Notes: generated from the sequence alone by a model not told the origin. Positions 2,310 through 63,952 are shown, numbered from the stretch's first letter. The stretch is DNA of 64,000 nucleotides from an uncultured Methanoregulaceae archaeon (GCA_963701095.1 OY969564.1:2016001-2080000); one strand, 5' to 3'. Numbers and translations: made by a program.

Positions 2310-3113
2310 TTATCATGGACAATCAGATTTTTTCCGCTCTTCTATCGCAGGCTAGGAAACAACGCCCTCTTGTCCACCATATTACAAATTACGTGACCGT
2401 TAATGACTGCGCAAATATCACCATCTGTGCAGGAGGAGCTCCGGTGATGGCAGATGCATGGGAAGAGGCAGGAGAGATGGCTGCTCTTTCAAGTGCCCTT
2501 GTTCTTAACATAGGGACTCTTAATTCAGGGATCATCAAAAGTATGATTTTCGCCGGGAAAATGGCAAACGAACGTAAGATCCCGATTGTCCTCGATCCGG
2601 TTGGCGCAGGAGCCACACGGTTCAGGACGGAGAGCTGCCGGCGACTCCTTGATGAATTGACTATTGCCACTGTCAAGGGAAACGCCGGGGAGATTGGGGT
2701 GCTTGCCGGTGTAGACTCAAAGGTACGGGGAGTTGATTCTGAAGGGATGAAAGGTGATCCGGTAACGGTAGCCCGGACATTTGCCCGCAATGCAGGAATT
2801 ACGGTAGTCATAAGCGGGGCAACCGACATCATCACTGATGGAGAACGTGTTCTCCTGGTTGAAAACGGCCACCCCATGATGGGCACACTTTCCGGGACTG
2901 GTTGTATGGCGACATCAATAACCGGCGTCTGCGCAGCAGTAAGCGATGATAGGGTGATAGCAGCAGCAACAGCCCTTGCAGCGTTTGGTCTTGCCGGAGA
3001 ACGGGCAGCAGAAAAAAGCCGGGTCCGGGTCCTTTAAATCGGCGCTTTTTGATGAAATGGCAGTACTCGCACCGGCAGACCTCCTTGCCGGTGCCCGGAT
3101 AAAATATGGCTGA
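2306..3113 (+). CDS. thiM: Hydroxyethylthiazole kinase (apparent frameshift near 3015; shifted frame ends [13 protein letters not shown]...ARIKYG*)
   Basis: [33 protein letters not shown] and GTGC motifs; adjacent to thiE. Confidence 0.92.
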
Positions 3114-3122
3114 AAAGAAGTC

Positions 3123-3782
3123 ATGAATCTCGAACTCTACGTTATCACTGATGAAGGAATCGCCAAAGGACGTACTCATGCAGAGATTGCACGTCTTGCC
3201 TGTGATGGCGGAGCAGATGCGATACAGCTGCGGGACAAATACTGCAGTTCTGAGAATCTATGCAGCATCGGCCGGGAGATTCGGGCAATAACCCGAAGGA
3301 CCGGGACAGTCTTTATTGTGAACGACCGGCTGGATATTGCACTTGCTTGCGGAGCAGACGGGGTTCACTTAGGCCAGGATGACCTCAAGGTAGATCTGGC
3401 ACGGCAGAAGGCACCCCGGCCTTTCATTATCGGTGTTTCGGTGGGAAATTCCGGAGAAGCTGTGGCAGCGGAAAGAGGCGGAGCGGATTATGTTGCCGTT
3501 AGCCCGGTCTTTGCCACAGTTTCGAAGATTGACGCCGGACCGGGGCGTGGGCTTGCAATGATTAAACAAATCAAAAGCGTGGTTTCGATCCCGGTTATAG
3601 CCATAGGTGGAATAAATTGTGATAATGTCGAAGAAGTGATCGCATCCGGTGCTGATGGCGTTGCGGTGATTTCAGTGGTAGTTGGTCAACCAGACATCAC
3701 TGCAGCCAGTCGCGATCTCAAAAAACGGATCACAGCAGCAAAACAAAGTCGCACGAGACTGAAAGCGATAAACCCCGATTGA
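3123..3782 (+). CDS. thiE: Thiamine-phosphate synthase
   Basis: LYVITD, QLRDK, IVNDR, GVHLGQDD and AIGGI motifs. Confidence 0.95.
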   Translation: MNLELYVITDEGIAKGRTHAEIARLACDGGADAIQLRDKYCSSENLCSIGREIRAITRRTGTVFIVNDRLDIALACGADGVHLGQDDLKVDLARQKAPRPFIIGVSVGNSGEAVAAERGGADYVAVSPVFATVSKIDAGPGRGLAMIKQIKSVVSIPVIAIGGINCDNVEEVIASGADGVAVISVVVGQPDITAASRDLKKRITAAKQSRTRLKAINPD

Positions 3783-3894
3783 AAACTCTTTTCCAGTACT
3801 TTCCGATCGTTTCATTTTTTGTTTCAAAATCTGGTTTTTGAAAAAGGCTCTATACCTCAAAGAGGAGGAGATAACGTCAGCAAGGAGATGTACG

Positions 3895-4023
3895 ATGAAA
3901 AATATGGCAATCAATGTTCTTGATCGAATAGGAAGGCTTGCGCTGAGGCGAAGTATTGAAGATCCTTCGGAAAATTTCCAGATTACTGCAGCAAATTCGT
4001 CGACATCCATGTATGCCTTATAA
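3895..4023 (+). pseudogene. Short relic resembling the N-terminus of a bacterial-type (class I) GAPDH
   Basis: MAINVLDRIGRLALRR resembles the class I GAPDH motif AINGFGRIGRL with the glycines lost. Preceded by AAGGAG; only 42 codons. Confidence 0.5.
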
Positions 4024-4045
4024 AGATCCACGAGGAGATTTTAGC

Positions 4046-6466
4046 ATGAGTACAGCAAAATACATCCGCTGGTTTGCGGAGATCAGGAACGAGGATGTCG
4101 CCAGTGTGGGAGGCAAGAACGCCTCGCTTGGCGAAATGTACCAGGATCTGACAAAGGTTGGGGTAAAAATCCCCAATGGTTTTGCCATTACCGCTGATGC
4201 ATACTGGAGAGTCGTAAAAACCGGTGATGTCATTGACAGGCTCAGAGACAATCTGGCCGATCTCGATAAGACAAGTCTCTCCAATCTGGAAGGACGGGGA
4301 AAAAAGGCACGAGACCTGATCCTCGGTGCAGGTATACCTGATGACATCTGGGCCGAGGTCCAGACTGCCTACGACAAGCTCTGTGAGGAGTACGGACCTG
4401 AAACCGATGTTGCGGTCAGGAGCTCTGCTACAGCGGAAGATCTCCCCACGGCATCATTTGCCGGCCAACAGGAAACTTACCTTAACATCAGAGGATATCA
4501 ATCACTACGGGAGGCATGCAGTAAATGCTTTGCCTCTCTCTTTACCGACCGGGCAATATCTTACCGGATCGACCAGAATTTTGACCACTTCAAGGTTGCT
4601 CTTTCTATCGGGATTATGAAGATGATCCGTTCTGATATGGCGTCGAGCGGCGTGATCTTTACTCTGGACACCGAGACCGGGTTCCGGGACGTTGTTTTTA
4701 TTACGGGCTCTTACGGTCTTGGCGAGAATATTGTACAGGGTGCCGTTAATCCGGACGAGTTCTATGTGTTTAAACCGACGGCGAGGACCGGGTACAGGGC
4801 CATTATCCGAAAAAACCTTGGCGATAAAAAGATCAAGATGATTTACGGTCAGGGCACTTCCAAGGTACTAACGAGAAATGTTGAAGTCCCCGAATCAGAT
4901 AGCCGGCGTTTCTGTATCACTGATGACGAGATTCTTAAACTGGCTCAGTTTGCCATCAAGATCGAGGAACATTATTCACAAAAGGCGCACCAGTCCGTCC
5001 CGATGGACATCGAATGGGCAAAAGATGGGATCTCCGGAGATTTGTTCATCGTCCAGGCACGTCCCGAAACCGTCCACTCTCAGGAGGCAATGGATCTCCT
5101 AATAACCTACCACCTGGAGCAGCGGGGGAAGGTTCTTGCAACGGGAAAAGGTGTCGGGGAAAAGATCGCTACCGGTAAAGCACGGGTTATTGCAGATGTT
5201 AGCCATCTTGGCGAGTTCCGCCCTGGGGAAATTCTGGTTGCTGACACGACAAATCCCGACTGGGAACCGGTCATGAAGACCGCTGCAGCAATCATTACCA
5301 ACCGCGGCGGAAGGACCTGCCACGCAGCCATAGTAAGTCGTGAGCTCGGGGTTGCGGCTGTTGTCGGGACTAACGATGCTACGGAAAAGATCAGAACCGG
5401 GCAGGACGTGACCGTCAATTGTTCAGAGGGAGATGAAGGGGTTGTTTACGAAGGCATCCTTCCGTTCCATATCGAAAAAGTATCCTTAAAAGATCTCAGG
5501 CGACCGAAAACAATGATAATGATCAACCTCGGTGAGCCGGATCAGGCCTTTGCCCTTTCGATGGTTCCCAACGATGGTATCGGGCTTGCCCGGATGGAGT
5601 TTGTCATCAATAATTACATCAAAATCCACCCGATGGCGCTCGTCCATCCGGAGAAAGTCACTGATGAGACAGTTAAAGCAAAGATAGGAGATCTTACGTA
5701 CGGTTACGGAGATCAGGAAGATTATTTTGTAGAGAAACTATCGCAGGGGATCGGAACGATTGCCGCCGCTTTCTACCCAAAACCTGTGGTTGTCCGGATG
5801 AGCGACTTCAAGACCAACGAATATGCCGATCTTCTGGGAGGGAAATATTTCGAGCCCGAAGAATCAAACCCGATGCTCGGCTTCCGCGGAGCATCACGAT
5901 ATTACGATGAGAAATACCGTGAAGGTTTTGCTCTTGAATGCCAGGCAATGAAACGGGTGCTCAATGAAATGGGTCTGACGAACCTGATCATCATGATCCC
6001 GTTCTGCAGAACGGTCAGTGAAGGTGAAAAAGTGCTGGCCGAAATGGCAAAGAACGGTCTAGTGCGGGGTAAGAACGGGCTCCTGGTTTATGTTATGTGC
6101 GAGATTCCCAATAACATCCTCCTCATCGATGAATTCAGCAAATTGTTCGACGGGTTCTCGATTGGATCGAACGACCTGACCCAGCTTACTCTCGGGGTTG
6201 ATCGTGATTCCATGGTAGTCGCCCACGATTTCGATGAACGGGATCCCGGTGTGATGAAATTTGTATCTATGGCGGTGCAGGGTGCCAAGAGAAACGGCCG
6301 TCATTCCGGCCTTTGTGGACAGGCGCCCAGCGATTATCCGGAATTTGCCGAGTTCCTCGTACGGGAAGGCATAGAATCAATTTCCCTCAACCCGGACTCC
6401 GTGATGAAAATCACCCAGAAAGTGGTTGCACTTGAGGAACATATGAACCAGAAGAGAATGAAATGA
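4046..6466 (+). CDS. ppsA: Phosphoenolpyruvate synthase (pyruvate, water dikinase)
   Basis: VGGKNASLGEM, AVRSSATAED, GGRTCHAAIVSRE (phospho-His) and SIGSNDLTQ; GAGGAG before ATG 4046. Confidence 0.96.
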   Translation: MSTAKYIRWFAEIRNEDVASVGGKNASLGEMYQDLTKVGVKIPNGFAITADAYWRVVKTGDVIDRLRDNLADLDKTSLSNLEGRGKKARDLILGAGIPDDIWAEVQTAYDKLCEEYGPETDVAVRSSATAEDLPTASFAGQQETYLNIRGYQSLREACSKCFASLFTDRAISYRIDQNFDHFKVALSIGIMKMIRSDMASSGVIFTLDTETGFRDVVFITGSYGLGENIVQGAVNPDEFYVFKPTARTGYRAIIRKNLGDKKIKMIYGQGTSKVLTRNVEVPESDSRRFCITDDEILKLAQFAIKIEEHYSQKAHQSVPMDIEWAKDGISGDLFIVQARPETVHSQEAMDLLITYHLEQRGKVLATGKGVGEKIATGKARVIADVSHLGEFRPGEILVADTTNPDWEPVMKTAAAIITNRGGRTCHAAIVSRELGVAAVVGTNDATEKIRTGQDVTVNCSEGDEGVVYEGILPFHIEKVSLKDLRRPKTMIMINLGEPDQAFALSMVPNDGIGLARMEFVINNYIKIHPMALVHPEKVTDETVKAKIGDLTYGYGDQEDYFVEKLSQGIGTIAAAFYPKPVVVRMSDFKTNEYADLLGGKYFEPEESNPMLGFRGASRYYDEKYREGFALECQAMKRVLNEMGLTNLIIMIPFCRTVSEGEKVLAEMAKNGLVRGKNGLLVYVMCEIPNNILLIDEFSKLFDGFSIGSNDLTQLTLGVDRDSMVVAHDFDERDPGVMKFVSMAVQGAKRNGRHSGLCGQAPSDYPEFAEFLVREGIESISLNPDSVMKITQKVVALEEHMNQKRMK

Positions 6467-52298: not shown

Positions 52299-53141
52299 CG
52301 GGGGCAGACCAGCCTGTGGCCTTCCTGACATTACAAAGTGAAGGAGGACGATAAGGCCTGCGATAGAGCCGATCATAGCCCCGAATGCAGGCAGATTAAA
52401 AAGTCCGAAATATTTCACTCCACCGGTGAATACGTTTGCTGAAACAACCAGCATTGAGGGAATGATCAGGTCTCCCATACCTATGATAAACGCGGAACGC
52501 TCCTCACCTTCACCGATCTTTCCAATTCCTTCCTTGATAAACGAATAACTGCGCTTTTTGGGTATCACAAAGAGTATTGGCGTTTTCAGATCAAGGACCC
52601 CTTCAGCAAGAGTGATCATGTGTTTGGTCTTGTAGACCGAGATCGCATCGTAAACTGCCAGAATGATAAGAAGCAGGATAACTGGGATCGTTCCGAGTGA
52701 CACACCGAAGATTGAAGCAACCCCTGCTGCAAGGAGGAGACCGAGAATATCAATGATGTACCATTCCGGGTATAAATACAAAAGCCCCGTCGCAAGAAGG
52801 GCAAGAGCTGCCATAGCCGCTACCTGGGCAAGTCCGGGTCCTATGATTATCGGGACAATGGCTGCAAATGTGTAGACAAAGGTGAAAAAAATCGAGATCC
52901 CGATTACCCAAGCGATCACATTCTTAAAGCCGTACTTAATCAAGACAAGAAGTACGGCAGTAAAACCTAAGATCATCGCAAGAAAGATGAGGGGATCAGC
53001 AAGCGACTGGGGGTTCTGGAAGGCCGAAAGGCCGGCGGCTTGGACAGGGAGCGAAAGGGCGAGCGAACCCAGCTCCACAATGACAAGGAACGCGGGCATC
53101 ACAAGAAACGGGATGAATTTTTTAACACCATTGATATCCAT
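52239..53141 (-). CDS. Presenilin-family intramembrane aspartyl protease (PSH)
   Basis: YDAISV, GMGD and AGLP motifs in a multi-TM protein. Confidence 0.92.
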   Translation of the reverse strand: MDINGVKKFIPFLVMPAFLVIVELGSLALSLPVQAAGLSAFQNPQSLADPLIFLAMILGFTAVLLVLIKYGFKNVIAWVIGISIFFTFVYTFAAIVPIIIGPGLAQVAAMAALALLATGLLYLYPEWYIIDILGLLLAAGVASIFGVSLGTIPVILLLIILAVYDAISVYKTKHMITLAEGVLDLKTPILFVIPKKRSYSFIKEGIGKIGEGEERSAFIIGMGDLIIPSMLVVSANVFTGGVKYFGLFNLPAFGAMIGSIAGLIVLLHFVMSGRPQAGLPPLNGGTILGFLIGWMLIGFV

Positions 53142-53253: not shown

Positions 53254-54459
53254 GTGTACATGCGTGTCGCTGACCCCGAAGGATACCGGTATGCCACCGA
53301 GGAGAAAGTCAATCGCAGGATTGATTCCTTTCCTCCTGATGAACGTGAACTGGTAAGAGAGTACATCAATACCAGTAGAGCCCAGAAGGGTATAAAATTA
53401 GTCAGGGTTGTTGGAATTATCGCTGGTCTGAAAGCCTGGCGGGATATCATCAAAAAACCGTTTCAGAAATGGACGCGCAATGATGTTTACCAAGGTGTTA
53501 CCTTCGTACGGGACAAAAAAAATTACAAACAAAATACGTCGATCATTTACATCGCCCTTATGAAAGCGTTCCTGACATGGATGATCACGGAGAAGTATTC
53601 GAAAATTCCCCTTGAAGAGATCATTAAAATCCAGTTGCCGAAAGGCGATACTGGATCCTTCAAACCTGGCGACATTCTTACCGAAGAAGAAGTCAGGACT
53701 ATTCTCTCATGTTGCGGATCTGATCGGGACAGGGCGTTGATTGCCTTGCTCTACGATGGAGGTTTCCGCATGGTTGAAGCGGCAATGATGACCTGGGGAG
53801 ATCTCGATTTTCAGTTCGATGACAGGATCACTGCGCGTACCTCACAGAAAACCTATGTCCCCCGTGTGGTTTCCCTTATGTCTTGTAAAGAGCTGATTGC
53901 AACATGGCGCTCACATTACCCGGGCAATCCGGTAGGCGATAACCCTGTTTTTGTAACCAGGGATGGCGAACCATTTACGTACTCGACAGCCACTGAGGTT
54001 ATAAAAAGTATACGGCTTAAAGCGATCAAGAAAGGTCTCGATCCAAAGAGAATTAAATTACACCAGTTCCGACGAGCATCAATTACCCATGAGGTCAATA
54101 AGGGACGCCCGATTTCTCATATCTGTATTGAACGCTGGGGCCGGGCATATTCTCCGATGATTGAGGTATATGCAAAACCCAGTGAGCAGGACGTTCTTCG
54201 CTCAAAGATGGAAATGTTCGGCGTAGAACCCAAACGGAAATATGAGAAGCGGAAAACAGCGATGACACCGACTCAATGCCAACATTGTGGTTTTATCAAT
54301 TCACCAGAAATTGAGTTCTGCGGAAAGTGCGGGAAACCGTTGTCTGAAGAAGCATTGACTGAAATTGAAATACTCCGAAAGGAGAGAGATATGGCTTTGG
54401 ATTTGGTGAACAAAGCGTATAAGGAAGGAAAGTTGGATTTAAAAGAACTTACGAGGTAG
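53254..54459 (+). CDS. Tyrosine integrase with C-terminal zinc ribbon
   Basis: RDRALI.LLYDGGFR..E (Arg), KT, HQFRR (HxxR) and IEVY (Tyr); CQHC...CGKC ribbon. Confidence 0.9.
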   Translation: MYMRVADPEGYRYATEEKVNRRIDSFPPDERELVREYINTSRAQKGIKLVRVVGIIAGLKAWRDIIKKPFQKWTRNDVYQGVTFVRDKKNYKQNTSIIYIALMKAFLTWMITEKYSKIPLEEIIKIQLPKGDTGSFKPGDILTEEEVRTILSCCGSDRDRALIALLYDGGFRMVEAAMMTWGDLDFQFDDRITARTSQKTYVPRVVSLMSCKELIATWRSHYPGNPVGDNPVFVTRDGEPFTYSTATEVIKSIRLKAIKKGLDPKRIKLHQFRRASITHEVNKGRPISHICIERWGRAYSPMIEVYAKPSEQDVLRSKMEMFGVEPKRKYEKRKTAMTPTQCQHCGFINSPEIEFCGKCGKPLSEEALTEIEILRKERDMALDLVNKAYKEGKLDLKELTR

Positions 54460-56331: not shown

Positions 56332-56795
56332 CCCGGTCGTGGCCTGTCTCTCCAGATGCGAAGGAGTCCCGCCGGGGCGCTCGTATCAAGAACGCGAAGA
56401 AAACCGTTATCGATGGGATACTGTTTGCGTCACGTATGGAATCCCGGCGATATGTCGAGCTTAAGAAACTGAAAGCGGCTGGTGTCGTGACTAAAATCGA
56501 GTGCCAGCCGGTATTTGAACTCCAACCGGCGTACCGGAAATGCTGCGACGTGACATATAACGCCGAAGATGCGCCGTTCCTTTATAAAAAAGGTATCTGC
56601 GAGTGTTGCGGGAAGAAGATGCCGATAATCAAAGCGATCCGGTATGTTGCCGATTTCCGTGTGACCTATGCAGATGGCAGGGTAGAGATTGAAGATGTAA
56701 AAGGCCATGAAACCGAAATTTTCAAGATCAAGAAAAAGATCCTGGAATGCAGGTATCCGGAGATCACGCTTAAAGTAGTAACGAAGGTGCGGTGA
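56328..56795 (+). CDS. DUF1064-family putative endonuclease with Cys-rich insert
   Basis: IDGILFASRME.RRY, QPVFEL, YVADF.V.Y and IEDVKG motifs. Confidence 0.82.
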   Translation: MTRSWPVSPDAKESRRGARIKNAKKTVIDGILFASRMESRRYVELKKLKAAGVVTKIECQPVFELQPAYRKCCDVTYNAEDAPFLYKKGICECCGKKMPIIKAIRYVADFRVTYADGRVEIEDVKGHETEIFKIKKKILECRYPEITLKVVTKVR

Positions 56796-57321
56796 TGTCG
56801 CACCAGCGCAAAGGGGATTACAAAACCCAGAAGGATGAGTGGGAAACCCCGGACTGGCTCTTTGCATTACTTGATCGGGAGTTTAATTTCAGGGTGGATG
56901 CAGCCGCTCGTAAACACAACACAAAGACCGGACTATATTTTGAGGATGCGATTTCTGTGGACTGGGCACATCAAGGGGGAATTGACCCAGCTATTTCCTT
57001 AATCCTCCCTACAGTGTCGGGAATATCAACCGGTTCATGAAGAAAGCCTACAAGGAATCTTTGAAGGGTGCGGTAGTCGTTTGCCTCGTACCAGTCGCAT
57101 CAGATACCCGGTGGTGGCATGATTACGTCATGCATGCGCAGGAGATCCGGTTTATCCGGGGCCGGGTGAAGTTCATCGGCTATGATGAGCATGGAAAACA
57201 GATCCAGAACTCTCCGACATTCTCTTCGTGTGTGGTGATCTTCAAACAGGAACGGCGTCAGGACTGGGAAAACCCAAGAATCGGCGAAACCATCCTGCAA
57301 CCCCGGAAGGTGCCAGCGTGA
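56792..57321 (+). CDS. Phage-type DNA N6-adenine methyltransferase (apparent frameshift near 56975)
   Basis: DEWETPDWLF..LDREF.F.VDAAA, then YFLNPPYS, LVPV.SDTRWW and IRFIRGRVKF in the shifted frame. Confidence 0.88.
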
Positions 57322-57914: not shown

Positions 57915-58724
57915 TCAAAAAAAATCAGATAGAGAAGAGTTTATATTTTTTATCTTTTTTGGCGGGTAATATACACCTATCAATAACCAATTATTCCACT
58001 TGCTTTCTGTCCCCATATAAAAATAAATATCTCGTTTTGTGAGCTCGTCAAAATATTTTTGTTTGACCTTCGCAAAGCAGTTATCCAATCCATATTTATC
58101 CCGCATCTTTCTCCACAGTTCACCCAGTTCCCAATCTTCACACATCATGTTATGATCTTTACATCGATCATCACAACATCTGAAATGATACCCCATCCAA
58201 TAAGGAATATATTCTAATGGTGACTTGTAATCTCCACAAAGTGTGGTTTGTCTTCCGGTGATTAATTCCTTCTCCCAATCCCTGCATGCACCACGATCTT
58301 TTTTATAAAAATCAAAAATTCGATTGGGTTTGATCAATCCTAAGGATGTTCCATCCTCTTCAGATCGCTCTATCAAGTCTTCAACTGATTTATTCAGGAG
58401 AGGAAGGATAATTTTATTTCGTGCATCCCAATCAATGGGGCTTTTAGAGAGGGACTCATCAACTATTTCTATGGTATCTGGTTTTATTTTGTGGCTTTCC
58501 TTTCTTTGGTATTTTTCATGTTCTTTTGATTTTTGTGCTTCTACTTCAATCCAAATGTATCTTTTAAATTGTTTATGAGGCGGGAGCTTGCGAAAAGGTA
58601 CTGGATACATCCTTATCCAGTTTCCTTCGTCGGTTATACCTGCCACACATACTGTTTCTTCATATTTTTCACTTAAATTTGGATACGCCTTAACAGTAAC
58701 AAAAACTTTAACTTTTTTCCACAT
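57915..58724 (-). CDS. Uncharacterised protein of the type found beside DUF488 genes (possibly dual-OB-like)
   Basis: VKAYP..S.KY.ETVCVAG...WIRMYPVPFR, RKES, SLGLIKP, CEDWE and FYMGT...IGVYYPP pattern. Confidence 0.7.
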   Translation of the reverse strand: MWKKVKVFVTVKAYPNLSEKYEETVCVAGITDEGNWIRMYPVPFRKLPPHKQFKRYIWIEVEAQKSKEHEKYQRKESHKIKPDTIEIVDESLSKSPIDWDARNKIILPLLNKSVEDLIERSEEDGTSLGLIKPNRIFDFYKKDRGACRDWEKELITGRQTTLCGDYKSPLEYIPYWMGYHFRCCDDRCKDHNMMCEDWELGELWRKMRDKYGLDNCFAKVKQKYFDELTKRDIYFYMGTESKWNNWLLIGVYYPPKKIKNINSSLSDFF

Positions 58725-58783: not shown

Positions 58784-59827
58784 TTATAAATCAATTCTTT
58801 CTTTAAATTCACCGGTTGCTAATATCAAGTTTGCCAAAATATGCCTATGGCAATGTATTTTCTGATCTCTAGTTGGTTTGGCATGCTTTTCCATACACAT
58901 TAAAACGGTCTTGCCGTTACTTTTTATTTCATCCACAAATTTCTTGAAGTCCATTTCTTTCTCAGTATGCCATTTGTAATATTTTTCAAGACATTCTATA
59001 GGAATAGCTCCATCCTTGTATGGGTTTTGCCATTCATATGGAATCCCAAGATCGGGACGGTGCTCGTATTTTATTTTGGCTCTATCCAATTCCCTTGCTA
59101 GAATGGATTTATTAAAATCTGGTTTATATTGAGATTCTGCTGAGAATCGAACGTCTATCAGACGTACGATACCATTATTTTTGAGTATCTCAATGAACTG
59201 TTGAATTTCTTTCCCCTCATAGCCGATTGTATAAATTGTATTATTGAGGAAACGATCTCTTTCCCTTCTTGCATCCTCCTCATTAGTTATATTCTTTGAT
59301 TTTAATATTTTTAATAACACGGGCTGTGCTGATTTCTCAAGCGATGAAATAATTAGTGCTATTGAGTTGCTTATGCTGCCATCAGCCAACGCCTTAGCTA
59401 CGGTTTCATGTAAATCTAAAGCCAGTTGTACCCTGCTATTTACCCAAGTGTGGCTTTTACCAACTTTTTCTGCTATTGCAGCACCTGATAATTTAGTGGT
59501 CTCCATTATTGCTTTTAAAACTCGCCCCTGTTCAACCTGACTCATTTCTTGCCTAAGCAGGTTGGTTTTGATGCTGAGAAACATTGCATCAAGATCACTG
59601 AGGTCTTTCACAGTGGCTTCAATCTCCTTCCATCCGAGTTCTTTAGCTGCTTGGACTCGGTTGTGTCCACCAATTAATTCATACCCTTCTCCCTTGGGTC
59701 TTACGAGGATCGGATTCCACTGACCATCTTCTTTAAGACTTTCTCTTAATTCACTGATGTACTCAGGATCGAGTTTTTCACGAACAGTAAAAGTCGTATC
59801 ATCAATTTTGCTTATTTTTATCTTCAC
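58784..59827 (-). CDS. ParB/Srx domain - HTH - DUF488 fusion protein
   Basis: L.ESLKEDGQWNPILVR...LIGGHNRVQA (ParB), IAEKVGKSHTWV (HTH), IYTIGYEG...LIDVR...LG...LMCME...CHR (DUF488); AGGTGA before GTG. Confidence 0.85.
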   Translation of the reverse strand: MKIKISKIDDTTFTVREKLDPEYISELRESLKEDGQWNPILVRPKGEGYELIGGHNRVQAAKELGWKEIEATVKDLSDLDAMFLSIKTNLLRQEMSQVEQGRVLKAIMETTKLSGAAIAEKVGKSHTWVNSRVQLALDLHETVAKALADGSISNSIALIISSLEKSAQPVLLKILKSKNITNEEDARRERDRFLNNTIYTIGYEGKEIQQFIEILKNNGIVRLIDVRFSAESQYKPDFNKSILARELDRAKIKYEHRPDLGIPYEWQNPYKDGAIPIECLEKYYKWHTEKEMDFKKFVDEIKSNGKTVLMCMEKHAKPTRDQKIHCHRHILANLILATGEFKERIDL

Positions 59828-61532: not shown

Positions 61533-61608
61533 GCCACTGAAGCACCTGCTGGCTCGGTGCGTTCAGCCTGTAACTGAAAGGGCGCAGGTTCGATTCCTGC
61601 CAGTGGCT
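61533..61608 (+). tRNA. Non-canonical tRNA-Thr(UGU)-like gene
   Basis: GCCACTG/CAGTGGC acceptor, GCAC/GTGC D stem, TTCAG-CC TGT AA-CTGAA, AGGGC variable loop, GCAGG-TTCGATT-CCTGC T arm. A8, C14 and C33 deviate from consensus. Confidence 0.75.
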
Positions 61609-61612
61609 TTCC

Positions 61613-61765
61613 ATGCGAACACGATTCTGTAGAGAGTGTGGGGAAACGTTCGAGGCGGTTGACGATAACGACTGGCTCTGCAAGAAATGTCTGCTCGCGG
61701 GATTCCGCGTATTATCCCAGGATACCAGAAAAATCGCCAGGAAAGAAGAGGTTCCGAACCAATGA
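61613..61765 (+). CDS. 50-aa zinc-finger microprotein (not in ORF track)
   Basis: MRTRFCRECGETF...LCKKC; ATGA overlap with the ParB gene. Confidence 0.6.
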   Translation: MRTRFCRECGETFEAVDDNDWLCKKCLLAGFRVLSQDTRKIARKEEVPNQ

Positions 61766-62373
61766 AAAACCCGTTAAAAGAAGAACCTGTGCCTGCCGGT
61801 GTGGGTAAAATCCTGCTGACGCATCTCATCCCGGATCCAAAGAACCCGCGTAAAGATCTTAAAAAAGGCGATCCGGAATTTGAGAAGATCACCACGTCCC
61901 TTGAAAAGTTCGGACAACTCGATCCGATCATCTTCAATACCCGTACCCGGAAGGTGCTCGGCGGTCATCAGCGGTTGAAAGTCCTCGCATCAAACGGATA
62001 TACGGAACTTAACACGTTTACGGTAGGGGCATACACCTGGGCATTTGCAGAGACCGATCTTGCAGAACTCTCACCATCGGAAGAAAACGCTGCTAATATC
62101 GCCCTGAATAAAGCGCAAGGCGACTGGAACGTGGACCAGCTCCTGATCAATCTCCAGGATCTTAAAGCCGAGGGAATGCTCGAGGTCTCCGGGTTTGATG
62201 AAAAGGAGTTCGAGAAATTAAAAAAGAAACTGGGAGAACCCGAAGATTCCAGCGACACCTCCCTGAAATCCGCGTTTGAAGTCATTATCGAGTGTGCTAA
62301 CGAAAGCGAACAGGAACAGGCGTATAACGAGCTCGTAGAGGCCGGGTACAAATGCCGCGTTTTGACATTGTAA
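61762..62373 (+). CDS. Phage-type ParB/Srx N-terminal domain protein
   Basis: LIPDPKNPRK, SLEKFGQLDPIIFN, GGHQRLK and NIALNK..GDW motifs. Confidence 0.85.
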   Translation: MKNPLKEEPVPAGVGKILLTHLIPDPKNPRKDLKKGDPEFEKITTSLEKFGQLDPIIFNTRTRKVLGGHQRLKVLASNGYTELNTFTVGAYTWAFAETDLAELSPSEENAANIALNKAQGDWNVDQLLINLQDLKAEGMLEVSGFDEKEFEKLKKKLGEPEDSSDTSLKSAFEVIIECANESEQEQAYNELVEAGYKCRVLTL

Positions 62374-63437
62374 AGAAAACGGAAGCTGCCGGAACGTTCA
62401 AGGTTGAACAGGTAAAGGGCGCCTTCGATCTCCAGACATCTACCATCCAGGAGCATTTTGCCGGCGACATTGCCATTGAAGGTAAAGACTGGAACATCGG
62501 CCTGATTGTAGGCCGGAGCGGAACAGGGAAAACCACAATCGCAAAAGAATGCTTCACTGATGCCTACATAGCGCCAAACGATTATAGCCTGGCTGCAATC
62601 GTGGATCAGATGCCGAATGGACTTTCCTATGCTGAAATCACGCACATGTTCACGGCTGTAGGTTTTTCATCACCTCCTTCATGGCTGAAACCATACGCGG
62701 TACTGAGCAATGGGGAACAGATGCGGGTCGACCTCGCCAGGGCCCTTTTGGAAGAGCGCGAGTTGATAGTGTTCGATGAGTTTACGAGCGTGGTAGACCG
62801 GGACGTTGCGAAAGTCTGCTCTCTGGCGGTCAGTAAAGCCGTCCGAAAGATGGGTAAAAAGTTTGTCGCCGTTTCCTGTCACGATGATATCATTGCATGG
62901 TTGCAACCTGATTGGCTCTACGATACCAATCAGCAGACGTTTTCCTTTCGGGACGGCCACGAAAAACGCCCTGAAATCACGGTTGACGTATTCGACACCC
63001 ACAGAAACGCAAAGCTATGGAAGGTTTTTGCGAAGTATCACTATCTGAATACCGAGATTAAAAGGGGCACGGACACGTTTGTAGGCTGTATCAATAATGA
63101 ACCTGTAGCCTTCTGCGCTGTCAGGCATTTTCCTCACCCGATGAATCCCAGGATAAAGATGGTTCACCGGCTGGTTGTCCTGCCGGATTACCAGGGAATA
63201 GGTATAGGCACCCGGTTCCTGGGATTTGTTGCTGACCTGTATAAGAAAAAGGGATTTGCCGTTCGCCTGGTTACTTCCCAGGTGTCGCTTATCAATTCCC
63301 TGGAAAAACACGGCTGGCGGTTGAAATCGTTCGGCCACCAGGCTAAAGTAAAGAAGGCTGGACTAAAACATCTGAAAAAAACGAACAGTAACCGCAGGAT
63401 TACCGCATCGTTCAAATATACTGGGGGGATTAATTGA
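62352..63437 (+). CDS. ABC-type ATPase fused to a GNAT acyltransferase
   Basis: GRSGTGKT, LSNGE, VFDEF and SCH; then KYHYL and RLVVLPDYQGIGIG (GNAT motif A). Confidence 0.88.
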   Translation: MPRFDIVKKTEAAGTFKVEQVKGAFDLQTSTIQEHFAGDIAIEGKDWNIGLIVGRSGTGKTTIAKECFTDAYIAPNDYSLAAIVDQMPNGLSYAEITHMFTAVGFSSPPSWLKPYAVLSNGEQMRVDLARALLEERELIVFDEFTSVVDRDVAKVCSLAVSKAVRKMGKKFVAVSCHDDIIAWLQPDWLYDTNQQTFSFRDGHEKRPEITVDVFDTHRNAKLWKVFAKYHYLNTEIKRGTDTFVGCINNEPVAFCAVRHFPHPMNPRIKMVHRLVVLPDYQGIGIGTRFLGFVADLYKKKGFAVRLVTSQVSLINSLEKHGWRLKSFGHQAKVKKAGLKHLKKTNSNRRITASFKYTGGIN

Positions 63438-63952
63438 CCAAAAAGAAATCCCCGTCTGAAAAAACGGGAAAAAGGGGTCGTCCGCCCGCATTTAAACCCG
63501 AATTTCACTCTAAATTAGTACTCGAACTCGCAGAGCAGGGAAAGACCAATGCCGAGATCGCCGAAGGCATGGGAATATCAACCGGGACTTTGTGGGCTTG
63601 GGCTAAGAAATATCCTGAATTTCTAAGCGCCCTAAAGACCGGCAAGGAGGAAACCGACAAAGCGGCAGTGAAGACCCTCTTACAGCGTGCGATGGGATAC
63701 ACGACGACCGAAAAGAAAGTTATCCAGAATCCCGACGGCTCCACTCGTAAAGAAATTACGGAAAAATTCGTTGCTCCCGATACAACCGCCTTAATATTCT
63801 GGCTCAAGAACCGCCAGCCACAGGATTGGCGCGACAAGCACGAACAGGAGATCACCGGGAAAGAAGGTGTTCCATTATCAGGGCTCATGATCCCGCCCGA
63901 ATCGTTAAAAGACGTTGGTGATCTCCTCGCCAGAAAAAAGGAGCGAAAATAA
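63434..63952 (+). CDS. Putative terminase small subunit (HTH type)
   Basis: RGRP..F, EIAEGMGIS.GTL.AW.KKYPEF..AL..GK and PDTTALIFWLKNR.P..WRDK pattern. Confidence 0.75.
   Translation: MTKKKSPSEKTGKRGRPPAFKPEFHSKLVLELAEQGKTNAEIAEGMGISTGTLWAWAKKYPEFLSALKTGKEETDKAAVKTLLQRAMGYTTTEKKVIQNPDGSTRKEITEKFVAPDTTALIFWLKNRQPQDWRDKHEQEITGKEGVPLSGLMIPPESLKDVGDLLARKKERK

Follow-up and report, generated by a model that had tools for sequence, protein, structure and literature searches.

A ParB-like protein and an ABC-ATPase–GNAT fusion encoded before terminase in an archaeal provirus: a candidate viral DNA acylation system

Introduction

For proteins that join an ABC ATPase to a GNAT acetyltransferase, an acyl modification of a DNA base, so far uncharacterised, has been predicted (Iyer et al. 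2021, PMC7824862, section 3.4.7). That article cites its authors' 2013 paper for the prediction and names Tenacibaculum phage pT24 as an example; the DNA-acylation idea is not new, having been in print since 2013. In the literature that we searched, the 2021 statement was the only one found on ABC-GNAT function, and no experimental test of the predicted acylation was found.

Other described systems share one component or another with these proteins. Mom of phage Mu was named in an earlier, sequence-only reading of the locus studied here as a DNA modifier with a GNAT fold, and PMC13219725 describes it as such; its catalytic residues are R111 and S124 and its co-substrate is a tRNA. On the side of ParB, the DNA thymine dioxygenases of phages require activation by ParB-like proteins that have a nucleotide-binding and a C-terminal domain and lack a DNA-binding one (PMC13229309). 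Fusions of the ParB-CTPase fold to methyltransferases are enriched in prophages, and a fusion of the same fold to an acetyltransferase binds GTP (PMC12704722).

Here we describe a ParB-like protein and an ABC-ATPase–GNAT fusion encoded beside terminase in a 64,000-nucleotide stretch, hereafter the window, from an uncultured Methanoregulaceae archaeon (GCA_963701095.1, OY969564.1:2016001-2080000).

Genetic context of the module

The features of the locus are collected in Table 1. The ParB, ABC-GNAT and terS ORFs lie on the same strand and overlap, as the sequence-only reading had noted. The overlaps are 22 nt and 4 nt long: on reading the sequence, the ATG of ABC-GNAT falls within Lys-Cys codons of the ParB gene, and its stop shares the letters TTGA with the start of terS. 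All three sequences show zero differences from independently assembled contigs of run X1, which may be the source sample. The ParB/ABC-GNAT arrangement is far from chance, since most of the 169 related loci have it too.

Table 1 Features of the module and its provirus (window positions)
Feature	Position	Strand	Details
Tyrosine integrase	53254..54459	+	Pfam Phage_integrase 3.8e-14; phrog_1 3.7e-24
Dam-type N6-adenine methyltransferase of provirus	56792..57321	+	two ORFs in present assembly
tRNA-Thr(UGU)	61533..61608	+	ARAGORN; 78 nt upstream of long ParB ORF
ParB-CTPase-fold gene	61762..62373	+	203 aa from internal ATG; alternative ATG at 61687 gives 228 aa
ParB/ABC-GNAT overlap	62352..62373	+	22 nt
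ABC-ATPase::GNAT fusion gene	62352..63437	+	361 aa
ABC-ATPase domain	62352..62951	+	about residues 1-200 of fusion protein
GNAT domain	62952..63437	+	about residues 201-361 of fusion protein
terS (terminase small subunit)	63434..63952	+	172 aa, TTG start

The third ORF matches phrog_309 (terminase small subunit) at 4.7e-46, along with HTH-type Pfam families, and is identified as terS by this match and by its position directly before terL. The terL gene (phrog_38) and a portal gene come next, past the window end (3572-5100 and 5104-6765 of L006). An apparent frameshift in terL is not found in the run X1 contig, which carries an extra G after L006 position 4161.

The tRNA-Thr gene upstream is treated as context alone, and its membership in the module is not implied. 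A wetland contig, about 95% alike, covers both tRNA-Thr and ParB. This tRNA had been considered as an att site or as a clue to the acyl donor; both ideas were dropped, as it has no repeat elsewhere in the genome and no tRNA lies close to the other two copies of the module.

The tyrosine integrase probably marks the left end of a provirus: host genes, with those of RadA, a NOG1-type GTPase and a signal-peptide peptidase upstream of the integrase, stop at 53141. The host is an archaeon by its archaeal SSU rRNA and mcrA, and the earlier proposal of an archaeal virus is borne out by an element that sits in this chromosome with its integrase beside host genes. The adenine methyltransferase that had been ascribed to the virus itself fared less simply. 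A Dam family match stands (PF05869, 9.7e-11 and 1.1e-9 for the two pieces), but the gene is split in two ORFs at a G5 run, past which the NPPY motif continues in another frame.

The genome carries three copies of the module. Their mutual dN/dS of 0.07-0.11, at dS>1, shows that the copies are under strong purifying selection. In one of them, ~9 kb of other genes separate the module from terS.

Distribution and linkage of the family

The pair is a very widespread viral module: IMG/VR contains at least 593 stretches that encode relatives, and the GTDB genomes at least 570. At E<=1e-5 the relatives form at least 7393 clusters (90% identity), a count that may include generic ABC proteins; at E<=1e-30, 563 clusters are found at the 50%-identity level. 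The window pair is a genuine new member, rare in archaea, of this known, uncharacterised family. Databases name its proteins 'ABC-type lipoprotein export system ATPase subunit', and phage annotations 'ABC transporter ATP-binding protein'.

If the sequence-only reading is right, homologues should be linked to ParB and to terminase, and both linkages are found. A ParB homologue lies directly upstream at 82 of 87 IMG/VR loci, a first-pass count with the single window protein as query, and at 77 of 80 GTDB loci, the three misses having <700 nt of upstream sequence; the linkage profile was built locally from the first 82 matches, that is, from the very neighbours being counted, because Pfam returns no match for the window ParB at E<=0.01. 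The identical 22-nt overlap is kept at 81 of the 87 IMG/VR loci and also at 33 GTDB loci, and 11 of 149 listed family representatives are ParB::ABC::GNAT triple fusions of 558-623 aa. The ParB-like protein and ABC-GNAT form an obligate partnership.

A more distant homologue lacks ParB, which counts against DNA acylation by the pair: in Burkholderia phage phiE255 (genus Bcepmuvirus) it sits past the tail-fibre genes, adjoining a formyltransferase. Its position, which we take to be the one where Mu carries mom, speaks in favour. Tenacibaculum phage pT24 is also among the search matches, and the gene upstream there is annotated as hypothetical only. In Streptococcus prophage 315.4, an ASCH gene lies 3' of the pair. 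ASCH as a general 'reader/eraser' of the system was rejected: none of 78 small downstream ORFs from IMG/VR has an ASCH match, and these ORFs are terS-like (DUF5681, HTH_Tnp_1_2, GP3_package).

A terminase subunit is encoded within the next two ORFs at 36 of 48 viral loci and, with the less sensitive Pfam, at 29 of 62 genomic loci. The terL families beside the module are unrelated to one another (phrog_2, phrog_38 and phrog_15; Pfam Terminase_3, Terminase_6N and GpA), which points to a slot chosen for its timing rather than to one specific terminase partner.

The slot beside terS and terL fits a role in packaging equally well. As a clamp or nuclease, ParB might work with the ABC ATPase to find, hold or cut concatemeric DNA for terminase, with GNAT binding or regulating and no base being modified. 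The conserved order of ParB, ABC-GNAT, terS and terL agrees with such an accessory, as does an HNH endonuclease found in the same slot at some loci (L064, L096). Yet many different terS/terL families accompany the module, one copy in the present genome is remote from terS, and the invariant CoA-binding loop and GNAT core residues (see below) argue for catalysis; we regard a packaging accessory as improbable.

The ABC-ATPase half

The ABC-GNAT protein matches phrog_11143 at E 4.9e-94 and 316 bits, its residues 9-359 aligning with positions 6-351 of the 357-position profile; on this match it can be assigned to that family of phage ABC-ATPase::GNAT proteins, listed under 'unknown function'. At E<=0.01, Pfam returns solely ABC_tran (36.2 bits, cut-off 25), generic AAA-type families and Acetyltransf_1/7/10, of which Acetyltransf_1 reaches 39 bits (cut-off 20.7); no Mom-type family is among these matches.

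ABC ATPases are defined by Walker A, the signature motif, the Walker B glutamate, the D-loop and the H-loop. We scored motif conservation on 28 sequences of 43-88% identity, in which Walker A (G54-K60), the signature L118-S-x-G121, Walker B with the D-loop (D142-E143...D149) and H177 are all invariant. The Gln of the Q-loop is not conserved, the consensus at that position being Asp. A model of the whole protein finds its best fold matches in the ABC nucleotide-binding domains (NBDs) of HlyB, BmrCD and MJ0796 (E about 1e-8). The first half of the protein belongs, by motifs and fold, to the ABC ATPase superfamily; it is a compact NBD with a shortened helical subdomain, in place of which stands a family-specific invariant motif.

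Most database and phage annotations would make this protein the ATP-binding subunit of an ABC transporter, which we find hardly credible. The part that is shortened and replaced is the permease-contacting subdomain, and all NCBIfam transporter models score far under their cut-offs (39.9 bits against 264.85 for the best). No permease or membrane protein adjoins the gene in the window, nor is one annotated near it at the 169 related loci examined. The sequence-only reading had set the transporter aside on the absence of a permease, correctly: the neighbours of the pair are tRNA-Thr, terS, terL and portal.

The GNAT half

The CoA-binding loop of GNAT enzymes follows the motif Q/R-x-x-G-x-G/A. In the same 28 sequences Q281-G282-x-G284 is invariant and G286 is kept in at least 90%. 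The domain model (pLDDT 82.5) has its fold matches in 1y9k (Z 14.7), RimI (Z 14.0) and Naa50 (Z 13.9); fold and CoA pyrophosphate-binding loop together place this half in the GNAT superfamily. Both enzyme halves look active, judging from ATPase motifs and a CoA loop that are invariant or nearly so.

The domain is strongly basic. Its pI of 10.3 and net charge of +18.5 in the window protein are close to the medians over the 28 sequences (pI 10.1, net charge +16), against pI 4.7-8.5 and net charges of -9 to +1.8 for seven GNAT domains encoded by host genes in this genome, a rough, window-based control. Such a charge fits a polyanionic substrate.

The fold itself resembles generic GNATs: RimI, Naa50 and small-molecule acetyltransferases. 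In the structural comparison with Mom and TmcA that had been proposed, the GNAT fold was recovered, and no DNA- or RNA-modifying GNAT, Mom (8BV8) and TmcA included, stood among the 50 matches listed (Foldseek, VIA). That the best fold matches of the model are protein N-alpha-acetyltransferases and small-molecule acetyltransferases would count against DNA as the substrate.

The target might be a packaging, capsid or host nucleoid/transcription protein, acetylated by GNAT under regulation or targeting by ABC and ParB. The closest solved folds include RimI, Naa50, Ard1 and NatA catalytic subunits (Z 13-14), the gene adjoins terS/terL, and phage GNATs that acetylate host proteins are known, such as Rac of phiKMV-like phages (PMC7824862). 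These fold matches are, however, generic for the superfamily, at 7-20% sequence identity, and for a domain of 160 residues a net charge of about +16 is unusual beside the host GNATs. The ParB partner is of the type fused to DNA-modifying enzymes, and a module that travels with several unrelated terminase families is unlikely to have a single fixed packaging protein as its target. Altogether, protein acetylation appears rather unlikely.

The many matches to streptothricin, phosphinothricin and spermidine acetyltransferases would instead suit counter-defence in which a small molecule, for example a nucleotide signal or an antibiotic-like effector, is acylated. Metabolic neighbours in some phages point the same way, namely an aspartate decarboxylase in Gordonia phage Jace and the formyltransferase of phiE255. 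Against this, no PADLOC defence or anti-defence family is matched except weakly by the ABC part (mad3, 3.9e-10), and neither the coupling to ParB nor the basic charge is explained. We give this, together with any other unforeseen function, a low probability.

The ParB-like partner

The window ParB matches phrog_498 at 2.1e-30, in the ParB part at the N-terminus of that methyltransferase family, phrog_620 ('ParB-like') at 1.8e-29 and PADLOC MTase_II PDLC03229, in its N-terminal part (12-147), at 8e-25. By these matches it is of the type that occurs in fusions with phage DNA methyltransferases. The family profile reaches solved N-domains of ParB/Spo0J/Noc at 7e-12 to 1e-8 (ParB 4umk at 7e-12), with weaker matches to sulfiredoxin and a ParB-domain nuclease, so that the protein can be assigned at the sequence level to the ParB/Srx superfamily (ParB-CTPase fold). 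Residues N28, G68, R71 and N116 are invariant in 28 sequences, with R30 and S46 kept in at least 90%; their spacing seems to parallel that of the CTP-contact residues of MxParB (PMC13229309), a mapping that is tentative.

The protein consists of an N-terminal nucleotide-binding domain and a short Cys/Glu-rich C-terminal mini-domain, and is acidic (pI 4.9). Homology to the other genomic ParB copies begins at residue 27-41 of the long form. Neither HTH_ParB nor any other HTH was matched in it, while a second ParB of the window (58784-59827) does have an HTH match, and no ParA was found near the pair among the window ORFs (Pfam). It does not look like a canonical chromosome or plasmid partition ParB. 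A partition system of ParB and ATPase was ruled out on three counts: the HTH is missing from ParB, the ATPase does not resemble ParA, and sequenced phages, for example Gordonia phages, carry the pair.

A basic enzyme with an acidic partner encoded upstream in an overlapping gene resembles toxin-antitoxin pairs, including the tRNA-acting GNAT toxins. Acylation of host or viral tRNA or rRNA late in infection, in the manner of TmcA/NAT10, in which an ATPase offers a base to a GNAT, or of a GNAT toxin acetylating aminoacyl-tRNA, and with ParB as regulator or antidote, would be in keeping with this type II layout, and with a very basic GNAT that suits RNA as much as DNA. In the window copy, moreover, a tRNA-Thr gene lies directly upstream. 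TmcA combines a RecD-like helicase ATPase with DUF1726, GNAT_acetyltr_2 and a tRNA-binding domain, but no TmcA-type domain (helicase, DUF1726, GNAT_acetyltr_2) was detected here by Pfam at E<=0.01. The tRNA gene is missing beside the other two copies; the ParB fold is of the kind fused to DNA methyltransferases, and the constant position beside packaging genes is left unexplained. An ATPase-GNAT precedent on tRNA cytidine exists (PMC13219725), and we still think an RNA substrate unlikely.

Proposed function

We tentatively favour the view that ParB and ABC-GNAT constitute one two-protein, ATP-dependent acyl-CoA acyltransferase that acts most likely on nucleic acid, the best candidate substrate being a nucleobase of viral DNA that has been replicated and is about to be, or is being, packaged; we hold this to be quite possible, if a little short of probable. 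In tailed viruses the pair would be co-expressed with the terminase genes, in some lineages as a single polypeptide. The ABC domains would form a dimer around ATP that, like DNA-handling ABC ATPases, clamps the substrate or opens it; the very basic GNAT would bind the polyanion and acylate an exocyclic amine with acyl-CoA as the donor. The acidic, HTH-less ParB would serve as a nucleotide-dependent activator or loader, like the ParB partners of the phage thymine dioxygenases.

A more ambitious form of the proposal, which we advance with somewhat less confidence, would make the pair the first ATP-driven DNA acyltransferase: a clamp-like ABC dimer, loaded or switched on by a ParB-fold NTP switch, that puts an acyl mark not described before on a base of concatemeric viral DNA just ahead of packaging, in hundreds of lineages of viruses that infect bacteria and, in the present case, methane-cycling archaea. 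To the published prediction we newly add the invariant motifs, the basic GNAT, the low dN/dS and the phage ParB-like activators of another DNA-base modifier as supporting points. Instability has been reported for simple N6-acyl groups on adenine (PMC13219725), which makes a stable acyl mark on DNA chemically non-trivial. Such a mark may have escaped notice so far, N-acyl bases being labile under the usual nucleoside work-ups.

This very large and highly conserved family occupies one of the most conserved genome slots of tailed viruses, and nearly everywhere its members wrongly bear the name of a transporter subunit. If the proposal is true, ABC ATPases and the ParB nucleotide switch would each gain a new use, and enzymatic DNA modification a new chemical class; this would matter for restriction evasion, the base-calling of viral DNA and enzyme tools. 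With the window locus, the range of the family comes to include proviruses of an mcrA-bearing archaeon; in the wider survey, harmless, cultured phage-host pairs are among the carriers of the module, with Gordonia phages NHagos, Ligma and Jace, Leptospira biflexa phages LE3 and LE4 and Oenococcus phage Vinitor-27 as examples.

Comparison with described systems

Like the window protein, Mu Mom (PDB 8BV8) is a viral member of the GNAT superfamily; it modifies DNA adenine after replication and is expressed late (PMC13219725). Mom acts alone with Gly-tRNA(Gly), not acyl-CoA, and without an ATPase or ParB partner, whereas the window GNAT retains the CoA-type Q-x-x-G-x-G loop.

TmcA and NAT10 likewise fuse an NTPase to a GNAT, and transfer acetyl from acetyl-CoA to the exocyclic amine of a nucleic-acid base, giving N4-acetylcytidine in tRNA and rRNA (PMC13219725). 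The ATPase of the window protein is in contrast of the ABC class and the accessory domains of TmcA were not found in it (Pfam E<=0.01), which sets it outside that family.

The ParB-dependent thymine dioxygenases (5mYOX) also place a ParB-like protein of nucleotide-binding and C-terminal domains, without a DNA-binding one and needed for activity, beside a post-replicative DNA-base modifier, and their pathways often co-occur with terminases (PMC13229309). There the partner enzyme is an Fe/2OG dioxygenase rather than an ABC-GNAT, and the likeness between the two ParB groups is one of domain layout. In the fusions of ParB-N to DNA methyltransferases (phrog_498, PDLC03229; N6_N4_Mtase fusions, PMC12704722) it is the N-terminal ParB part that the window ParB matches; the window ParB, by comparison, is a separate protein and its catalytic partner an ABC-GNAT.

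Closest of all is the predicted ABC-ATPase+GNAT system for acyl modification of DNA nucleobases (Iyer, Zhang, Burroughs & Aravind, NAR 2013; PMC7824862), with the same architecture and family as the window protein. It corresponds to phrog_11143, and the window copy differs from it in belonging to an archaeal provirus and in being one of three in a single genome.

An archaeal provirus with overlapping ParB, ABC-GNAT and terS genes

The host genome, assembled as one contig of 2.63 Mb, encodes an archaeal SSU rRNA (1579.6 bits) and mcrA. Host genes for RadA, a NOG1-type GTPase and a signal-peptide peptidase end at 53141. The integrase beyond them is followed by genes for a DUF1064 protein and a Dam-type methyltransferase, a PDC-M19-like pair, a tRNA and the module; terL (as two ORFs) and then portal lie past the window end. 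This succession from host genes to integrase, module, terminase and portal bears out the sequence-only reading of a tailed virus integrated in an archaeal chromosome.

Coordinates of the provirus features and of the further module copies (window positions unless marked genome)
Feature	Position	Strand	Remarks
Tyrosine integrase	53254-54459		directly after host genes
PDC-M19-like gene pair	57915-58724 and 58784-59827	-	PADLOC: M19B 1.5e-66, M19A 2.6e-25; candidate defence system
ORF1, ParB-like	61687-62373	+	228 aa; 203 aa from the in-frame ATG at 61762, the start in the sequence-only reading
ORF2, ABC-GNAT	62352-63437	+	361 aa
ORF3, terS	63434-63952	+	172 aa
Further copy of the pair	genome 796859-798558
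Further copy of the pair	genome 105957-107602

The three module ORFs are consecutive on the same strand at the window end. ORF1 and ORF2 share 22 nt; ABC-GNAT begins with an ATG inside Lys-Cys codons close to the 3' end of the ParB gene. ORF2 and ORF3 share 4 nt. A tRNA-Thr stands 78 nt upstream of the long ParB ORF. Since homology to the genomic paralogues begins only at residues 27-41 of the 228-aa form, the 203-aa form is plausible. Against PHROGs, ORF1 scores as ParB-like (phrog_620, 1.8e-29) and also matches the N-terminal ParB segment of phrog_498, a methyltransferase family (2.1e-30). ORF2 belongs over its full length to phrog_11143, of 'unknown function' (4.9e-94), and ORF3 to the terminase small subunits (phrog_309, 4.7e-46). 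The Pfam search gave no match for ORF1; on ORF2, both ABC_tran and Acetyltransf_1 exceed their cut-offs. We dismissed annotation of ORF2 as an ABC transporter, as every NCBIfam transporter model scores far below its cut-off.

Apparent frameshifts occur at short G runs in terL (~4161 of L006, the stretch reaching beyond the window end; genome 2081160), in the Dam methyltransferase (window ~56975-56981; two ORFs, with a shift at a G5 run and NPPY encoded in the other frame) and at the C-terminus of the copy-3 ABC-GNAT (genome ~107560). A type IIG restriction-modification gene is likewise in two pieces at such a run (L006 12883-16366). At least in terL the break is due to misassembly: one more G stands in its G5 run in contigs from sequencing run X1. 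In these contigs all three module genes are identical, with zero differences; as X1 may be the source sample, it counts as a different assembly, not an independent sample. G-run frameshifts may underlie the genome's completeness estimate of 86%.

The second protein of the PDC-M19-like pair has ParB_N, HTH_ParB and DUF488 domains (Pfam), an architecture of which PMC12704722 reports one archaeal example as a CTP binder. Just past the window end, a defence island (L006 9645-16366) with an HKD and Snf2 helicase-nuclease and the type IIG enzyme separates the genes on the portal side from the rest of the provirus's structural genes. Contigs from the wetland metagenome run X2, 90-95% alike when compared with L006 417-1381, span tRNA-Thr and ParB together, as well as stretches of ABC-GNAT and portal, so viruses or proviruses related to this one are present in other samples.

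Coupling of ABC-GNAT to ParB

We analysed 89 viral loci (9 and 80 from two scans; 43-81% identity), the best-scoring of at least 593 family stretches in IMG/VR, and 80 genomic loci (38-70% identity) of at least 570 in GTDB species genomes. A same-strand ORF precedes ABC-GNAT in 87 of the 89 viral loci, the other two being at a contig end. It is a homologue of the window ParB in 82/87 (phmmer with this single protein, E<=2e-10; no match in L093, L095, L096, L098 and L102) and overlaps the ABC-GNAT start by exactly 22 nt in 81/87, to which L069 probably belongs once its over-extended start is corrected. Among genomic loci, a ParB-like ORF lies upstream in 77/80, the three misses having <700 nt of upstream sequence, and the 22-nt overlap recurs in 33. 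Moreover, all 11 proteins of 558-623 aa among 149 listed representatives consist of a ParB domain fused ahead of ABC-GNAT.

Other arrangements were also seen. The homologue P0180 carries an intein (Hint and LAGLIDADG) within its ATPase domain, and at locus L051 a Hint fragment (4959-5324) immediately follows terS. In loci L015, L016 and L018 and in Streptococcus and Oenococcus phage records (H1-H9), ABC and GNAT are divided between two ORFs or tblastn pieces, with a stop ~33 codons beyond residue 200; natural splitting or a frameshift may be the cause.

Position next to terminase

For 48 of the 74 viral loci with >=1500 nt downstream, the first two ORFs were run against PHROGs. A terminase was found among them in 36/48 (terL in 33, terS alone in 3); two of the 12 loci without one have an HNH endonuclease. 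Small ORFs between module and terL are terS-like. Among the 62 genomic loci with >=1800 nt downstream, at least 29 have a terminase Pfam match within two ORFs; the figure is a minimum, since Pfam matched nothing in several of the 440-600-aa ORFs. The neighbouring terminases belong to several unrelated families. ParB, ABC-GNAT and terminase follow in this order also in Leptospira LE3, Gordonia NHagos (genes 1, 2, 4) and Streptococcus prophage 315.4. Such proximity brings in a rival explanation, a role in packaging that leaves the bases unmodified; the position is also the slot that phages use for late DNA-modification genes.

In Gordonia phage Jace (L021, 47046-49125) an aspartate decarboxylase directly follows the pair, and in Burkholderia phage phiE255 (L022, 21674-23406) ABC-GNAT stands without ParB, directly followed by a formyltransferase, downstream of tail-fibre genes. 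Both metabolic enzymes are possible hints to an acyl or amino-acyl donor in those lineages.

Conserved sites and charge

Across 28 aligned sequences (alignments A1 from protein matches and A4 from viral loci), the ABC half keeps invariant Walker A (G54..K60), signature (L118-S-x-G), Walker B with Glu143, D-loop and His177. An invariant family-specific stretch (residues 103-115) occupies the position of the transporters' helical subdomain. The GNAT half has invariant residues of its own: W223, H230-Y231-L232, R273 and, in the CoA loop, Q281-G-x-G.

For the full-length protein, the AlphaFold model (pLDDT 79.4) matches ABC nucleotide-binding domains. Modelled alone (pLDDT 82.5), the GNAT domain matches 1y9k (Z 14.7), RimI (14.0) and Naa50 (13.9), many of the rows lying within one Z unit of each other; these matches are ordinary GNATs, which establish the fold and say nothing on substrate. 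Protein acetylation and small-molecule acylation are rival readings. The GNAT domain is, in addition, very basic in the 28 sequences (median pI 10.1, net charge +16), compared with pI 4.7-8.5 for seven GNAT domains of the host genome, a rough control using fixed 160-residue windows. Such a strongly basic catalytic domain would fit a nucleic-acid substrate, be it DNA or, as a further rival has it, RNA or tRNA.

ParB is acidic (median pI 4.65). In profile comparison it matches the N-domains that bind CTP in the solved ParB, Spo0J and Noc structures, its C-terminus is a small conserved Cys/Glu-rich domain, and domain search and alignment found no HTH.

Distribution and the three copies

A word-indexed search with ABC-GNAT scored 8000 candidates and gave at least 7393 protein clusters with E<=1e-5. 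Exhaustive comparison with all 50%-identity representatives yielded 3531 matches at E<=1e-3, 1583 at E<=1e-10 and 563 at E<=1e-30, the weak end surely containing generic ABC proteins. Among the matches listed, those in GTDB are mainly bacterial (Planctomycetota, Nonomuraea, Bacteroidota, Proteobacteria, Alicyclobacillus and others); the archaeal ones come from two MAGs, one of Methanoregula (70% identity, in a truncated match) and one of Bathyarchaeota (43%). At E<=1e-20, a match was found in only one of 300 sampled other genomes of the class, a member of the same family but of a different genus, and in none of the 68 same-genus genomes searched. With archaeal matches so few among the genomes searched, three copies in one archaeal genome are unusual for the family.

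Between these copies ABC-GNAT is 81% and ParB 48-51% identical, with dN/dS of 0.07-0.11 and 0.18-0.38, respectively, and dS >1: they are old genes maintained separately, not recent duplicates. In one extra copy terL follows the pair; in the other, the pair is ~9 kb away from terS/terL, with an amidase-TIG protein among the products encoded in between. Just upstream of copy 2 (L008, the stretch around it, 2952-5287; genome 792951-795286), GmrSD-N, HEPN (RiboL-PSP) and GGDEF/Cas10-palm-like genes form what looks like another defence-type cluster within a provirus.

Predicted function and comparison with known systems

Altogether, the module is one predicted enzyme of two components, co-translated and sometimes fused, in which the ATPase and acyl-CoA sites are intact, and its ParB partner is of the kind that serves DNA-modifying enzymes. 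PMC13229309 shows phage ParB-like proteins without a DNA-binding domain to be required activators of DNA thymine dioxygenases; in 19% of the contigs mined there, such pathways occur together with terminases. PMC12704722 notes frequent fusion of phage ParB-CTPase folds to DNA methyltransferases, and a bacterial ParB::acetyltransferase fusion as the sole GTP-specific binder among those tested there. Given the coupling, the intact sites, the basic catalytic domain, the kind of ParB and the late-modification slot, nucleic-acid acylation is the best reading, and we tentatively propose that the module carries out ATP-dependent acylation of nucleic acid, most likely viral DNA. On the chemistry, PMC13219725 establishes Mom as a Gly-tRNA-using GNAT and finds N6-acyl-adenine to be unstable.

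The literature searched contained no experimental work on ABC-GNAT. The proposal of DNA acylation in the sequence-only reading repeats a prediction already in print: Iyer et al. (2021; PMC7824862), in their passage on ABC-GNAT, name Tenacibaculum phage pT24 and cite their own 2013 NAR paper. The question is old and important, and can be tested directly in harmless cultured phages. To it we add the near-obligate linkage to ParB at a constant 22-nt overlap, triple fusions, independence from terminase family, the charge pattern, selection data and rarity in archaea. With this locus, a known family, computationally predicted and still uncharacterised, gains a new member from an archaeal virus.
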